Assembly (NCBI GenBank): GCA_963743585.1
Contig: CAVUQI010000001.1
Span: forward strand, 500,476 to 564,475
Source: an uncultured Acidobacteriaceae bacterium
Lineage (GTDB): Bacteria; Acidobacteriota; Terriglobia; Terriglobales; Acidobacteriaceae
DNA: 64,000 nucleotides
Direction of reading: 5' to 3'
The position numbers were made by a program, and so were the translations under genes. This document shows positions 18,476-23,683 of this stretch, one piece after another. Below the pieces are notes generated by a model, which did not search any database, was not told the origin of the DNA, and saw only the letters and a list, made by a program, of their open reading frames with translations. Within the stretch, counting starts at the first letter, position 1; each line of letters opens with the position of its first letter.

Positions 18476-19856
18476 CTACTGCGCTAATTCTTTGCGGACG
18501 CGAGCCATCAGCCTCCGGTATTCGGAATCGTTTTGTAGTGCCGGAATCGGCGGGTCTGACGTGAGAAGGCCGGCCTCGCGGCGGTCAAAAGCGAGTTGGA
18601 GGTAGGTGAGCGCATCCCTGGTTCTGCCGAGAGCGGCGTACGAGACTGCCAGATCGTAGGCATTTCCACCCCCGCCGTCGACTGCCGCTTTCTGCAGGGG
18701 TAGTTGAGCTTGCAGCATCCCTCTCGGGCCGCCGGAGGAGAATCCCTCGGCGCGGGCATCAGCGAGCGCCAGGCCTGCCAGGTCGTGGCGCAACTCAGCG
18801 ACCGTGCGCCACTCAGCAACGGCCTTTGCATAGTCCCGCTGCTCCCACGCGATTCTTGCAAGGTAATAATGAGTGGATGAAAGAGACGGATCGGTAGTTT
18901 CGAGCTGCTTGAGCAAGGCGAGCCCCTCAGAATGGCGGCCAGCAGACCACAATAGGTATCCCTTGTCGGCGAGCAGTGCGGTCGATGCGGGCTCGAGGCG
19001 CTGCGCCTGATCGATCTGATCGATGGCATCCGGAAAACGATGGAGCGCCATCAGATAGGTCGCATACCAGTGGTGGGCGCGCACCAGATCGGGATTCAAC
19101 TGCAAAGCGCGCTTGAATTCGCGCTCGGCGGTCGCTGCCTTCCACAACCACCAGAAGGTTGCAAAGGCGAGCGAGTTGTGGGCCTGGGCGGAGGTGTCGT
19201 CAAGTTGGACCGCGCGCTGTGCGGCAGCGAGTGCGCGCGGGTAAGCCTCGGCCGCAGGCATGACTCCGAATTCGCGCAGCAGGTTATAACAGTCGGCGAG
19301 TCCGACGTAGGCTTCGGCATTGCCGGGATCTCGGACGATGGCCTGCGTGAAATAGTCGATCGCCTGGGTGAGGTCATCGGGTGTGCGACGGCTCCAGAAA
19401 TAGCGTCCCTTGAGGTAGAACTCCTGGGCTTGTGTGTTGGATGAATGGTGGCTGGCTGCGCTCGCGAATCGAAATGCGCCACGCTGTCCCAGGTAAATAA
19501 TCAGCAAAACAATCAACAAGAACGACGCCGACACGGCAGCCCATAGCGCTCGGGTGTGGGCCCTCGCGGCGGTCGACCCGAAGTTCGGTCCTTGACTTGC
19601 CGCCTCGACTGCGTCCTCGTGGGCCGGTTTATCGAAGGCTGGTTCTGCCGCTATGGTTCCTGCTGAATCTCCGGTTGGAGGGGCCAACTCCGGCAGAGTT
19701 GGCGATTCTGAATTGAGGTCTTCGGGACCGGCTTTTCAGCCAATCGGCCAGCTCCCGAGTGTAGGCAAAAACTGAGCTGCGGCCGTTCCCCGGAAGCCGA
19801 TGAACGGGGAGACCGCGTTCCGACTCCCAGCGCTTGACGGTGCGCTCGGCGCGGCC
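18476..19856 (-). pseudogene. HTH (ERTVKRWE-type) + TPR regulator, 3' fragment, separated from its 5' end by the IS insertion and carrying one further frameshift
   Basis: The minus strand reads GRAERTVKRWESERGLPVHRLPGNGRSSVFAYTRELADWLK, then needs a 1-nt skip in the A-run (plus strand TTTT 19733..19736) to continue as AGPEDLNSESPTLPELAPPTGDS... into the 403-aa TM+TPR ORF. Length 3n+1. Confidence 0.75.
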
Positions 19857-19864
19857 AAAAAAAG
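19857..19864. repeat. Target-site duplication AAAAAAAG (left copy)
   Basis: Identical 8-mer at 21778..21785, directly abutting the inverted repeats. Confidence 0.8.
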
Positions 19865-19907
19865 GGCATTAAATCACAAGACTCACCTAGCGTGGTAAAC
19901 TCTATGA

Positions 19908-20282
19908 ATGGCCTTCGTACAATTTTCCAGTGGCTTCACGCCACAGCAACAAAAGAAAATCATCGACGCAGTAAGCCCAAAGCTGCGCGGCTGCTCGGCG
20001 TGCGGCCAAAATGCATGGCAACTGATGACGGAGGGTGTCGTTCAGATGCCGATTGCACCGAATCCCGGAGCATTAGCATCGGCATTCTACTCGCAGCCCC
20101 CAAACTATGCGGATGCAGCCATGTATGGTCTCATCGGTCCAACCCCTCCGCGAACGTTGCCATGCATCGCGCTTATGTGCAGCAACTGCGGTCATTTGCA
20201 GTTTTACAGTGTGCTTCAGCTTGGTCTCGGTGTTGCGCTTGGAGTCGTGGCATCGCTCATCCCAGAGCCGGAGGGACAATAG
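19908..20282 (+). CDS. Passenger gene A: 124-aa hypothetical protein with CxxC...CxxC (zinc-ribbon-like) and a hydrophobic C-terminus
   Basis: CSACG at about residue 29 and CSNCGH at about residue 91. Its coding end contains GGAGGG, placed as an SD for the next gene. The region is visibly less GC-rich than its surroundings. Confidence 0.6.
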   Translation: MAFVQFSSGFTPQQQKKIIDAVSPKLRGCSACGQNAWQLMTEGVVQMPIAPNPGALASAFYSQPPNYADAAMYGLIGPTPPRTLPCIALMCSNCGHLQFYSVLQLGLGVALGVVASLIPEPEGQ

Positions 20283-20283
20283 G

Positions 20284-20655
20284 ATGTCTGGACAGAACCT
20301 TATTCCTCCGCAAGAAGATGATGGCAATCCGATTCTCTCGCCTGTCCCAATTCCTCTCACCGTGCAATATGTTCAGAGGAGTATGCGCATGATTCCTGTA
20401 AACAGCCATGAATTGGATACCGTCGCATCTCTTAGCAACTCGGTCAACTTAGCATTTTTCACTTTGTGCGTGGGGCTGGCTGCTGCCTTTGGACTTGTTC
20501 TCAATCAGGGCGGTATCACTGATGCCATGAAGCACGCTGAATATGTGAGTCTGTTCGCTGTGTCGGTAGTAGGTTCACTTTATTTCGGAGTCAGAGCATT
20601 GGTTGACCACCGAGCGGCGAAAAGAAGATTGGATGACATTAAGCGCGGCAAGTGA
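20284..20655 (+). CDS. Passenger gene B: 123-aa hypothetical 2-TM membrane protein with basic C-terminal tail
   Basis: ATG lies 1 nt after the stop of gene A. Two hydrophobic helices (VNLAFFTLCVGLAAAFGLVL and YVSLFAVSVVGSLYFGV). Tail HRAAKRRLDDIKRGK. Confidence 0.6.
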   Translation: MSGQNLIPPQEDDGNPILSPVPIPLTVQYVQRSMRMIPVNSHELDTVASLSNSVNLAFFTLCVGLAAAFGLVLNQGGITDAMKHAEYVSLFAVSVVGSLYFGVRALVDHRAAKRRLDDIKRGK

Positions 20656-20800
20656 TTCGCGGTTTATTTTGTCGCTGGTTTCCGTAATGGAGGCGCGTTG
20701 ACCACTCGTTTAAGCAGTTTTTTGAACTTGCGAAACCCCGGCGGCTTCTTGGGCTTTGGTTCTTTTCCCTCTACCTTGTCGTGGTTCTTTTCCATGCGCA

Positions 20801-21729
20801 TCACCCTAACACTAGCGCATACGTCAAGCGCTTGCCGACAATGGAATCGAGCACTTTCTGGAATCTTTCTGCACTGGTTAGCTTACGCTCGTTATAGCGA
20901 AAGGCTTGCTCATCAAGGTATCTGAATAAATGAAACGGCTCGACACTCACATACGTTCCTTTGATCGAGCGCTTCAACAGCGACCAGAAATTCTCAAGGC
21001 GATTAGTGTGAACGTTGCCATTAACGTATTCTTCGGCATGATCGACAACCTTGTGCGCGTAGTCAGACTCAAGCCCATCATACGATTTCAGCGCGTCAGT
21101 ATAAACTGCCGTTCCCGCTGCGACGTTCTCTCTAATTCGTCGTTGCAGTTCACCTTTGCGCCGCGTGCTCACAACGGACGTGCGAATCTTTCCAGTCTCG
21201 CGCTCCAACAATCCGAATACAACAGCTTTTCCCATGGGGCCGCGTCCACGAATCTTTTCCATGCGCTTCCCGATGTGCATATTTCGTGCCTTCCCGCCGA
21301 TAAAGGTTTCATCTGCTTCCACGGTACCAGTCATTTTGTTGACGCTACCCGTGTGCATGGCGTAGCGGATACGATGCAGCATGAACCATGCCGACCGCTG
21401 AGTAACTTTGATCGCGTCGGCAAGTTCGTAACTGCTGATGCCGTTCTTACAATTCGCAAGCAGCCACATCGCCGTCAGCCATTTGTCGAGCGGAATCGCG
21501 CTGTCCTCAAAGATCGTTCCGACCTTGACGGAGAACTGCTTCTTGCAATCGAGGCACTTCCACATCAGGCGCGTAGTCAGAAACGACAGCCGTTTGGATG
21601 CACATTGCGGACAAGCAGGCCATTAGGCCACTTGGACTCGGCAACGTGTTTCAGGCAGACCATAGGGTCAGAAAAATACCGAATAGCTTCCATCAAACCA
21701 TTGGCGCTGTATGGTTTATCGTTTCTCAT
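20801..21729 (-). pseudogene. IS1595 family transposase, apparent 1-nt deletion near codon 37
   Basis: MRNDKPYSANGLMEAIRYFSDPMVCLKHVAESKWPNG (frame a) continues as PACPQCASKRLSFLTTRLMWKCLDCKKQFSVKVGTIFEDS... (frame of ORF 20801..21565). Junction near 21618..21621; length 3n+2. N-terminal zinc ribbon plus DDE_Tnp_IS1595-like core (DETFIGG, VYTDALKSY, HTNRLENFWSLLKR). Confidence 0.85.
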
Positions 21730-21753
21730 GAGGTGAGTCTAGCACATCATGAA

Positions 21754-21777
21754 AGGTGAGTCAAGTGATTTGTTGCC
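21754..21777. repeat. Transposase-proximal terminal inverted repeat of the IS1595-family element
   Basis: See the mobile_element entry. The 9-mer AGGTGAGTC also recurs subterminally at 21731..21739. Confidence 0.8.
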
Positions 21778-21785
21778 AAAAAAAG
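21778..21785. repeat. Target-site duplication AAAAAAAG (right copy)
   Basis: Identical to 19857..19864. Confidence 0.8.
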
Positions 21786-21846
21786 CCGCAATTTCTTTCC
21801 AGGAATCCAGCCGATGAGACGCCAACGGGTCGCGATGAGCTGCCAT
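21778..21846 (-). pseudogene. HTH+TPR regulator, 5' fragment (23 codons) cut off by the IS insertion
   Basis: The minus strand reads MAAHRDPLASHRLDSWKEIAAFF, then runs into the IS inverted repeat. It joins in frame to G RAERTVKRWE at 19856 once the element is removed. Confidence 0.65.
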
Positions 21847-22015
21847 AAAGGGAAATGACCTGTACTGACCCGTAGCGGCCTGAACTGTCTCTTGCGGGGG
21901 GGGAACGCCGGGGAACCATAGTATAGCCCGAACCCGCGCGTTGCGCTCCCCCACTAGAGTGCCCCCTCAGGCATTAGGCCCCGCGCATAAACCTAACAAC
22001 CTCAGGAGGATTTGG

Positions 22016-23683
22016 ATGTCGGCTCAGTCTTTTTGTCGCCAGGCTTCGGCTTTGGCTTTCGCATTTATCTCCGTTTTCGCTGTTTTCGGTAGCGCTTCAG
22101 CCCACGCGCAAACTTTTAAACCGATCTTTGAGGGAACAAACGCCACTACCATCGTGAACCCCTCCAGCAGGGTTGTGACCCAGGGCACCGATGGCGACAT
22201 GTATTTCACCAGCGAAAACGGCGGCACTTTTTATGGAACGCTGTTTAAGGTGTCACCGACCGGAGCAGGTGCACTGGTTTATGACATTTCCTATTTTCCG
22301 ACCAGCGGCGTCAGCCTTGGCCTGGACGGCGAATACTACGGAACCAACGGAGACGGCGGACCGGGCGGCGGTTGCGGTTTTTCCGGATGCGGCCAAATCT
22401 ATAAGGTGTCGGAAGCCGGAAAAGAGACGATTCTATACAGCTTTACCGGTGAGGGCGACGGTGCGGACCCGCAGTCTCCCCCAATCCTCGCCGCTAACGG
22501 CCTTTTCTACGGCACCGCACCCGCTGGCGGCGCCAATAGCGCCAGCACTGCATACTCGATCAGTTCCTCCGGAGCATTCAAGATCCTGCACACCTTCGCC
22601 GCAACTGAAGGGCAACAGGTGCAGGCGGAACTGGTGCAGGGACTCGATGGCAACTTTTACGGCACGGCTGTTAACGGCGGGGCTAATGGTCTTGGAACGA
22701 TCTTCAAGATGAGCCCCACCGGCACCGTGGCGGTGTTGCATAACTTCGCGGGATCCGATGGCTCGAATCCATGCTGCGGACTGTTGCTGGCCAGCGACGG
22801 AAATTTCTATGGCACGACCAGTAATGGCGGAGGCGAGGGCATTGCGGGTGTAATCTTTCGGATCACGCCGGCAGGCGTCTACACCGTGCTTCACAGCATC
22901 AATCCCGCGAATGGGGATGGCACGGGGCCGGGATCCACGCTGACCCAAGGCACCGACGGAAAACTCTATGGCGTCACCGCCTCCGGCGGTGGTGGGGTGA
23001 GCGGCACGCTCTTTAACATGACCACGACCGGCACGTTTAAGACTTTGTATACATTTTGCAGCAGTGGAACTTGTACTGACGGCTACGGGCCCAGCTCTCC
23101 GCTGAAGCAGAATACGAATGGCGTCTTTTATGGCAGCACTTGGTCCGGCGGGGATTTGACACAGTGCAACGGGGAAGGTTGCGGCGAGGTCTACAGCTTG
23201 AGCACGGGGCTGAAGCCTTTCGTATCGCTGCCGCTCGCATCCGGCGAAGAGGGCGCGAAGGAAGAGATCCTGGGCCAAGGCTTCACCACGTCATCGACCG
23301 TTAGCTTTGGTGGAACTCCGGCGACCATCACTGAGGCAACCAGCAAACTTCTGGTGGTCAAGGTTCCGGCGGGAGCGTTGACGGGTTCGGTGACAGTCAC
23401 AACCGGGTCTGAAACATTGACCAGTTCCCGGATCTTCCGCGTAACTCCGACCTTCCTTTCGTTCGATCCGACGAGCGGACAGGTGGGAACGCCTGTGACC
23501 ATTACGGGAACCGGGTTGACGCAAACCATCGGCGTGGCGTTCGATGGGACCGCAGCAAGTTTTACGGTTGATTCCGACACGCAGATCACGGCAACGGTTC
23601 CGAGCGGAGCCAAGAGCGGAAAAATCACTGTTACTACCCAGGGAGGAAGCGTGAGCAGTAGCACCAGCTTTACGGTGAATTAG
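22016..23683 (+). CDS. Secreted GloVer-type tandem-repeat protein with C-terminal IPT/TIG-like domains
   Basis: AGGAGG before ATG 22016; signal peptide ending ASAHAQ. Repeats of the type GTLFKVSPTG...LYSF...DGxxP...DGxFYGTTxxGG. Three C-terminal segments of about 80 aa: FTV..ITGTGL / GKITVTT. Confidence 0.8.
   Translation: MSAQSFCRQASALAFAFISVFAVFGSASAHAQTFKPIFEGTNATTIVNPSSRVVTQGTDGDMYFTSENGGTFYGTLFKVSPTGAGALVYDISYFPTSGVSLGLDGEYYGTNGDGGPGGGCGFSGCGQIYKVSEAGKETILYSFTGEGDGADPQSPPILAANGLFYGTAPAGGANSASTAYSISSSGAFKILHTFAATEGQQVQAELVQGLDGNFYGTAVNGGANGLGTIFKMSPTGTVAVLHNFAGSDGSNPCCGLLLASDGNFYGTTSNGGGEGIAGVIFRITPAGVYTVLHSINPANGDGTGPGSTLTQGTDGKLYGVTASGGGGVSGTLFNMTTTGTFKTLYTFCSSGTCTDGYGPSSPLKQNTNGVFYGSTWSGGDLTQCNGEGCGEVYSLSTGLKPFVSLPLASGEEGAKEEILGQGFTTSSTVSFGGTPATITEATSKLLVVKVPAGALTGSVTVTTGSETLTSSRIFRVTPTFLSFDPTSGQVGTPVTITGTGLTQTIGVAFDGTAASFTVDSDTQITATVPSGAKSGKITVTTQGGSVSSSTSFTVN

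Follow-up and report, generated by a model that had tools for sequence, protein, structure and literature searches.

The DNA analysed here is a stretch of 64,000 nt from contig CAVUQI010000001.1 of an uncultured soil member of the Acidobacteriaceae; the whole stretch is referred to as the window, and loci of relatives are labelled L001 onward. At 19865-21777 the window contains an element of 1913 bp, which carries passenger genes next to a gene for a transposase assigned to the IS1595 family of insertion sequences (IS), and which interrupts a gene for a protein with a helix-turn-helix (HTH) and tetratricopeptide repeats (TPR). The element and its edges are made up of the following features, including the open reading frames (ORFs).

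19857..19864: left 8-bp target-site duplication, AAAAAAAG; a single copy is present at the site in the ortholog L091
19865..19888, plus strand: left (cargo-side) terminal inverted repeat, GGCATTAAATCACAAGACTCACCT; a related repeat lies upstream of the orfA homolog in L006
19908..20282, plus strand: orfA, 124 aa, zinc-ribbon-like, with C29, C32, C86, C91 and C94 and a variable linker
20284..20655, plus strand: orfB, 123 aa, predicted to form two long hydrophobic helices, with a basic tail at the C-terminus; a single nt separates it from the orfA stop
20664..20804, minus strand: small basic ORF, 46 aa, with the motif GFRKFKKLLKRVVNAPP; its ATG overlaps the TGA of the transposase gene (TGATG)
20801..21729, minus strand: IS1595-family transposase gene, split in the window into 21577-21729 (50 aa) and 20801-21565 (254 aa)
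21754..21777, minus strand: right (transposase-side) terminal inverted repeat, GGCAACAAATCACTTGACTCACCT on the minus strand
21778..21785: right 8-bp target-site duplication, the second copy of AAAAAAAG

The ends of the element are as described in an initial annotation of this locus, which had claimed a size of 1913 bp, 8-bp direct repeats and, immediately inside them, 24-bp inverted repeats starting with GGCA and identical at 20 of 24 positions. The exact direct repeat has 11 nt (GCCAAAAAAAG, at 19854-64 and 21775-85) rather than 8, because the final GCC of the right inverted repeat equals the left flank by chance; only under the 8-bp reading do the inverted repeats reach the tips of the element. 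With 3 mismatches allowed, a degenerate inverted-repeat pattern had no further match in the 64-kb window, and none in 100 shuffles. The lower G+C content that had been noted for the interior is likewise real, at 49-54% compared with 58-62% in the flanks on both sides.

The interrupted gene lies in two parts on either side of the element.

21786..21846, minus strand: 5' fragment of the HTH-TPR gene, which together with the duplicated 8 bp encodes MAAHRDPLASHRLDSWKEIAAFF
18476..19864, minus strand: 3' part, with the remaining HTH, a linker, a transmembrane segment and the TPR repeats; an extra G at 19724 shifts its frame in the window

Excision of 19865-21785 in silico joins the minus-strand frames into a single one (...HRLDSWKEIAAFFGRAERTVKRWESERGLPVH...; MAAHRDPLASHRLDSWKEIAAFFGRAERTVKRWESERGLPVH...), which reproduces an earlier observation. 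The insertion point falls within the AAFFG codons of the N-terminal helix-turn-helix and cuts the first 23 codons off from the remainder, and the insertion would presumably inactivate the gene. For the repaired target protein 3600 homologs were found, and almost all of those listed are full-length. The best of them, P0009 (481 aa, 88% identity), is uninterrupted and stems from another Candidatus Sulfotelmatobacter assembly (L091), where it has the same neighbours as in the window, namely an epimerase/3-beta-HSD gene, genes for proteins of 263 aa and 307 aa, and an ABC-2 permease gene. When the window without the element and without one copy of the duplication is aligned with the DNA of L091, the two are 88% identical and no gap occurs at the junction, which reads GCGGCTTTTTTTGGCC in the window and GCCGCTTTTTTCGGCC in L091. 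The single target copy in L091 is CTTTTTTC, compared with CTTTTTTT in the window. L091 is the orthologous empty site of a sister species. As the whole 1921 bp are missing from this gapless site, all 1913 bp of the element, passenger ORFs included, must have come as one piece. The earlier proposal of a cargo-carrying derivative agrees with the position of the passengers inside the repeats and with the absence of the entire unit from the sister-species site. The claim of an insertion into a regulator gene holds for the interruption, given the intact ortholog in L091, but not in full for the regulator: this is a putative label for a protein with predicted HTH, transmembrane and TPR parts, and the source records name it a tetratricopeptide repeat protein.

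As a separate observation, the short spacer that separates the interrupted HTH-TPR gene from a divergent gene for a 580-aa protein with repeats and a TIG domain (21941-23683) contains, at 21896-21903, a tract of eight G, which reads as eight C on the gene strand, compared with six in L091. The length of this tract might affect the expression of either adjoining gene.

The split of the transposase gene is caused by a 1-nt deletion near 21619. Addition of one base after WPNG yields a protein of 309 aa, and exactly such an intact ORF is present in L001, L002 and L004, the three assemblies that cover the position. Profile searches were made with this repaired frame, which is identical to the ORF in L001. 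It matches PF12762 (DDE_Tnp_IS1595, ISXO2-like) with E=9e-42 over 152 of 153 profile positions, PF12760 (an N-terminal zinc ribbon) with E=3.3e-11, and NF033547 (IS1595 family transposase) with E=1e-53 and 182 bits, the cutoff being 75. These matches support the membership in the IS1595 family that had been proposed initially. An alignment of 81 transposases, namely the one from the window, 79 relatives and one distant element, shows a conservation of at least 97% for residues C40, C43, C59, D140, D212, E246 and K253; from what is known of the family, we take D140, D212 and E246, together with K253, to be catalytic. The zinc ribbon is present in all IS1595 subgroups except IS1016, and the family has a D, D, E/N/H triad with K/R seven residues past the third position. 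The element thus combines features of the family, including the DDE domain, the zinc ribbon, D/D/E and K, the 8-bp duplication and the GG-tipped repeats. One continuous transposase ORF is a further trait of the family; that of the element is broken in the window and continuous in three other assemblies of the insertion. The role of the 8-bp duplication as a hallmark, which the initial annotation had named, agrees with the literature, where the family is described as having a zinc finger at the N-terminus, a DDE domain and target duplications of 8 bp (PMC8101967, citing Siguier 2009). Transposases in plasmid records carry no label beyond “IS1595 family transposase”, and none exceeds 42% identity to the one in the window.

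Two further sites can be recognized within the element, one near the start of the transposase gene and one at the end of orfB.

21736..21764, minus strand: promoter-like TTGACT-17-TAGACT, extended by TG, ahead of the transposase ATG; a consensus match only
20644..20671, plus strand: terminator-like hairpin followed by a T-rich stretch, where orfB ends; a consensus match only, in a count that is not above shuffle expectation

The -35 box of the promoter-like site sits within the right inverted repeat, and the TTGAC core is almost invariant among the inverted repeats of relatives.

The passenger genes orfA and orfB are placed between the left inverted repeat and the transposase gene, inside the inverted repeats and convergent with the minus-strand transposase, as had been stated before. 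Close relatives are rare: among 5.8 billion clusters, orfA has a single one, at 72% identity, and orfB has five, at 66-73%. In comparisons without saturation of synonymous sites, the ratio of non-synonymous to synonymous substitution rates (dN/dS) is 0.11-0.29 for orfA and 0.10-0.18 for orfB. These low values indicate that both are real genes, and they form a conserved pair under purifying selection. An exhaustive profile search with orfA among 1.84 billion representative sequences returned 92 remote relatives at E<0.001, all of 56-173 aa; the ten clusters that were inspected are metagenomic and unnamed or called “hypothetical protein”. Invariant in orfA are Q14, C29, C32, P85, C91, C94 and G95, with C86 nearly so, and the variable linker is rich in proline. 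The AlphaFold (AF2) model of orfA (predicted local distance difference test score, pLDDT, 77.5) shows a helix followed by beta-hairpins in a zinc-ribbon-like arrangement. A sequence search of the PDB with orfA gave generic zinc-ribbon noise only, and the sole PHROG match for the passenger pair is a weak one of orfA to phrog_4293 (E=0.007), whose function is unknown. In the AF2 model of orfB, a disordered N-terminus is followed by helices at 41-74 and 81-120 and by the basic tail, forming a plain helical hairpin. Two predicted transmembrane helices with a basic tail would fit holin-like proteins or small membrane toxins, a build that is non-specific.

Adjacent orfA/orfB pairs were found in five other loci (L006, L007, L093, L095 and L096). 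In L006, a related left repeat (GGCAACAAATCATTCGACTCGCCT) and the same leader precede the orfA/orfB homologs, with no transposase gene downstream, and the locus looks like a decayed copy of such an element. In this part of L006 (1583-1624), AGGTGAGCATCAATGTTTGG lies just upstream of the left repeat; it loosely resembles a right repeat and could be the remnant of an abutting element end. L094 is a second, distant IS1595 element of 1797 bp (16-1812), with a transposase 34% identical to that of the window, 24-nt inverted repeats CACGATTATGCATTTGACGCATCA and CATGATTATGCACTTGACACATCA and the 8-bp duplication GTCAAGGA. Its cargo is the two-helix 3' part of an orfB homolog (82% identical to that of L093), in the same convergent position and without orfA, which suggests that cargo modules may recombine between IS1595 backbones. 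A 96-aa ORF upstream of this orfB part contains the motif of the small basic ORF (REKFEGIVKNLLHTKPVKRE).

Farther homologs of orfA are directly followed by an overlapping gene for a two-helix membrane protein (L097; L098-L102). In L097 (2314-4850), the orfA homolog P0136 comes right after a phage portal gene and a Peptidase_M15_4 endolysin gene, and before the overlapping gene, which encodes 168 aa; this context hints at a possible phage origin of the orfA/orfB module. In L098-L102, the distant orfA homolog stands among small genes, one of them ParB-like. In viral contigs, just three weak relatives were detected. We did not adopt an origin of orfA/orfB from phage lysis genes, as a profile comparison between orfB and the two-helix partners of the distant orfA homologs was not significant, and as the single full-length relative in a viral contig lies in an early/regulatory region and has no membrane partner. 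We regard orfA/orfB, from its distribution, as a small conserved module of mobile or accessory DNA.

Exact-protein look-ups detected the element at the same site in four metagenome-assembled genomes and four read-run assemblies, with an identity of 99.7-100% to the window. The insertion is old enough for all nine assemblies of this species-level population to have it in common. In the 2.7 kb around the element, the window and the assemblies covering that stretch differ by no substitutions and two 1-nt indels. The extra G at window position 19724, which shifts the frame of the target gene between HTH and TPR, is missing from all seven other assemblies covering the position, and the base that is missing after window position 21619 is present in all three that cover it. 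Over 10.4 kb, the window and L001 differ by 3 indels and 4 substitutions, a ratio that suggests that the frameshifts in the window may be assembly errors.

A transposase scan of one genome per species (185,579 species genomes) confirmed at least 574 relatives, the best 80 of which were analysed. Their transposases are 55-72% identical to the one in the window (the nearest, among the matches listed, at 72%), and they come from Acidobacteriota, Chloroflexota, Actinomycetota, Verrucomicrobiota, Binatota and other phyla. Elements were delimited by an 18-nt inverted repeat near the transposase start, a downstream partner of this repeat and an 8-bp duplication, with GG-tipped repeats. This was possible for 53 of the 80, and in 50 of them the 8-bp duplication is perfect. 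Delimited elements measure 1709-4284 bp (median 2294) and hold 730-3318 bp of DNA beyond the transposase; not one of the 53 consists of the transposase only. The consensus of their tips is GGCAATAATATACTTGAC. The duplications of the 50 elements have the near-palindromic consensus C-(T/A)-A-A-T-T-(A/T)-G (C-W6-G), to which the window site fits at 7 of 8 positions; this implies that target choice in the clade is sequence-selective.

The cargo of these relatives is diverse. Its proteins of at least 90 aa fall into clusters of 14, 10, 5 and 3 members and 58 singletons. Pfam families among them are DUF3800 (10 elements), PemK/MazF (2), DUF6941 (2), Trypsin_2 (2) and two DNA methylases, and further RelA_SpoT, HEPN, TacA, DUF433 and Nuc_deoxyrib_tr. 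The PADLOC models matched are the defence candidates PDC-S33 (E=3e-108) and PDC-S42 (E=5e-66), mad2, an LmuA-like one and many methylase models. Neither orfA nor orfB is cargo in any of these relatives. That the cargo is of a conflict type is an impression rather than an enrichment, and a search of a library of papers returned no report that links IS1595 elements with passenger genes to defence cargo.

The small basic ORF beside the transposase gene had been overlooked in the initial annotation, as had the transposase frameshift near 21619 and the extra G at 19724. It is kept in the two closest relatives, L011 and L012, and a hidden Markov model built from eight such ORFs detected the family in at least 45 of the 80 related loci (L011-L090). 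Its members are proteins of about 45-60 aa with the motif (T)PFE(R/K)F..L.KK(L/I)V.VPK.E(I/L)D and a basic K/R tail. Some are joined to the C-terminus of a cargo protein, and in L027, L069 and L022 the match makes up the C-terminal end of a larger protein. In elements that could be delimited, all matches are internal, usually 50-300 nt from the transposase stop and on either strand. The ORF matches no Pfam or NCBIfam family. Its constant position suggests that it may be a component of the backbone. To our knowledge, a conserved small basic ORF adjoining an IS1595 transposase gene has not been described before.

Together, we consider it highly probable that the segment 19865-21777 belongs to the IS1595 family as a transporter insertion sequence (tIS), and that it moved as a unit into the HTH-TPR gene. 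Read on the transposase strand, such an element would begin with the right inverted repeat and its -35 box, continue with the gene for the zinc-ribbon and DDE transposase and the small basic ORF, which would be translationally coupled to the transposase stop, and end with a cargo slot and the left inverted repeat. The slot would be occupied by a convergent two-gene operon, with orfA encoding a putative zinc-ribbon protein and orfB a putative two-helix membrane protein. The transposase would presumably have bound both inverted repeats and moved the whole unit. Its target would have been the A/T-rich 8 bp CTTTTTTT (on the gene strand) in a gene for a membrane-anchored HTH-TPR protein, and these 8 bp would have been duplicated upon insertion.

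Several points weigh against this interpretation, some of them on the side of the element and some on the side of its cargo. For the mobility of the unit as a whole, there is a single insertion event to go by. The initial annotation had proposed to look for empty sites and for other copies, and an empty site was indeed found (L091, syntenic), but further copies of the exact element were not: exact-protein look-ups and the best 80 genome loci contained no second site or close copy, in searches that did not scan the source genome in full. A polymorphic empty site within the species was not found either; all nine assemblies share one site. The element may be inactive in the window because its transposase is frameshifted there. 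Four of the 24 positions of the inverted repeats are mismatched, and the mismatches extend to the TTGAC core, for which the cargo side has AAGAC. As for the cargo, neither orfA nor orfB belongs to a Pfam, NCBIfam or PADLOC family and no defence, toxin or holin model matched them, while the orfA model found no Foldseek match below E=0.1 in the PDB or BFVD. In L007, L093 and L095, the orfA/orfB pair occurs without a transposase gene or a recognizable repeat, and a role related to the element is therefore not required. The defence-like picture of the cargo in related elements is drawn from about a third of the cargo proteins, since most cargo proteins are unannotated.

Among the alternatives, the one that survives best holds that the element is an immobile relic, fixed in the population and decaying, with neither current activity nor a function of its cargo. 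Its presence as a single copy at the same site in nine assemblies would be expected of such a relic, and so would the frameshifted transposase of the window and the loss of the conserved TTGAC core from the cargo-side repeat. However, L001, L002 and L004 have an intact transposase of 309 aa, decay can have had little time given the absence of substitutions in 2.7 kb between assemblies, the proportion of 3 indels to 4 substitutions in 10.4 kb between the window and L001 hints at assembly errors as the source of the frameshifts, and both orfA and orfB are under purifying selection across relatives. We therefore consider a relic rather unlikely, although less so than the other two alternatives. 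According to the second, the origin was nested or in two steps, such that orfA/orfB was first a mobile insertion cassette with IS1595-type repeats and without a transposase, which was later fused with, or captured by, an IS that had one; the unit that moved last may then have been put together from two mobile parts. L006, with its left repeat GGCAACAAATCATTCGACTCGCCT and leader before the orfA/orfB homologs and no transposase downstream, might be taken for such a cassette, and the 3' half of orfB has recombined into a different IS1595 backbone in L094. But no matching right repeat follows orfB in L006 (with at most 6 mismatches), as would be the case in a decayed copy rather than a cassette, and the present element has one pair of repeats and one duplication, whatever its history, making this course of events improbable. 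The third, that a minimal transposase-only IS of ~1.1 kb lies beside resident orfA/orfB genes outside the mobile unit and that chance accounts for the outer left repeat and for the repeated AAAAAAAG, could draw on the transposase-free pairs in L007, L093 and L095 and on the imperfect inverted repeats (20/24), but is almost certainly wrong, since L091 lacks the entire 1921 bp and is gapless across the junction, an empty site that already contradicts it, since no sequence resembling an inverted repeat is present between orfB and the transposase gene, and since all 53 delimited relatives hold at least 730 bp beyond the transposase inside their repeats and duplications.

The preferred reading, a tIS, places the element in a class that is already known and not surprising by itself. 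The name dates from the definition of the IS1595 family and was coined for IS-like elements that carry passengers (Siguier et al. 2009, as cited in PMC3129680 and PMC11891212), and tIS have been reported as restricted to the IS1595 and IS66 families (10.1101/2021.05.26.445724; PMC3129680). With the ISNwi1+ and ISPna2+ derivatives (Siguier, Gagnevin & Chandler 2009, as cited in PMC3129680, PMC11891212 and 10.1101/2021.05.26.445724), the element in the window shares a single transposase with zinc ribbon and DDE domain, GG tips, an 8-bp duplication, and passenger genes unrelated to transposition between the transposase gene and the far repeat. It differs from them in its cargo, as orfA/orfB has no annotated relative, and in its transposase, the nearest relative of which is 72% identical among the matches listed. 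ISNwi1+ derivatives measure 1750-4750 bp and have tips of the form GGnnatTAT, and the relatives found here (1.7-4.3 kb, tips GGCAAT(A/T)AT) resemble them in this. The nearest analogue outside the family are Tn7-like transposons with defence-dominated cargo (PMC8649781), which have in common with the present clade a conserved backbone and variable cargo, including restriction-modification, toxin-antitoxin and candidate defence genes. In contrast to their TnsABCD(E) proteins, the elements described here use one DDE protein; they are also 10-50 times smaller, carry one to few cargo genes, and show no targeting of attachment sites. Mobile insertion cassettes (MICs, such as IS231-MIC231, as cited in PMC3129680) likewise consist of passengers bounded by IS-type inverted repeats, and L006 is superficially similar to them. 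The element in the window, however, encodes its own transposase, and in L006 no second repeat was found.

For Candidatus Sulfotelmatobacter, the locus provides a clear model example of an IS with cargo for which the empty site is known exactly, and for its annotation a new IS name and a disrupted HTH-TPR gene. The greater worth lies in the clade-wide picture of cargo in every delimited element, a variable slot, and an unannotated small protein at the boundary between backbone and cargo, and in orfA/orfB. From the build of its proteins and from what occupies the slot in related elements, orfA/orfB might be a self-contained, membrane-acting conflict module of the addiction or abortive-infection type. 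It is tempting to go further, to a large and so far undescribed clade of IS1595 tIS from soil bacteria, each combining, in a fixed three-part build, a transposase and its coupled small basic protein with a slot for exchangeable cargo, which would never be free of cargo and would mainly spread conflict modules of one or two genes, with orfA/orfB as a new module of this kind and the small protein as an accessory factor for transposition or cargo exchange; in this full form the idea is speculative, and we hold it to be doubtful. Should the clade-wide picture hold in a systematic survey, few autonomous carriers of conflict genes would be smaller than these 2-kb elements, and their cargo slots would be a cheap place to seek new systems, with orfA/orfB as one candidate.

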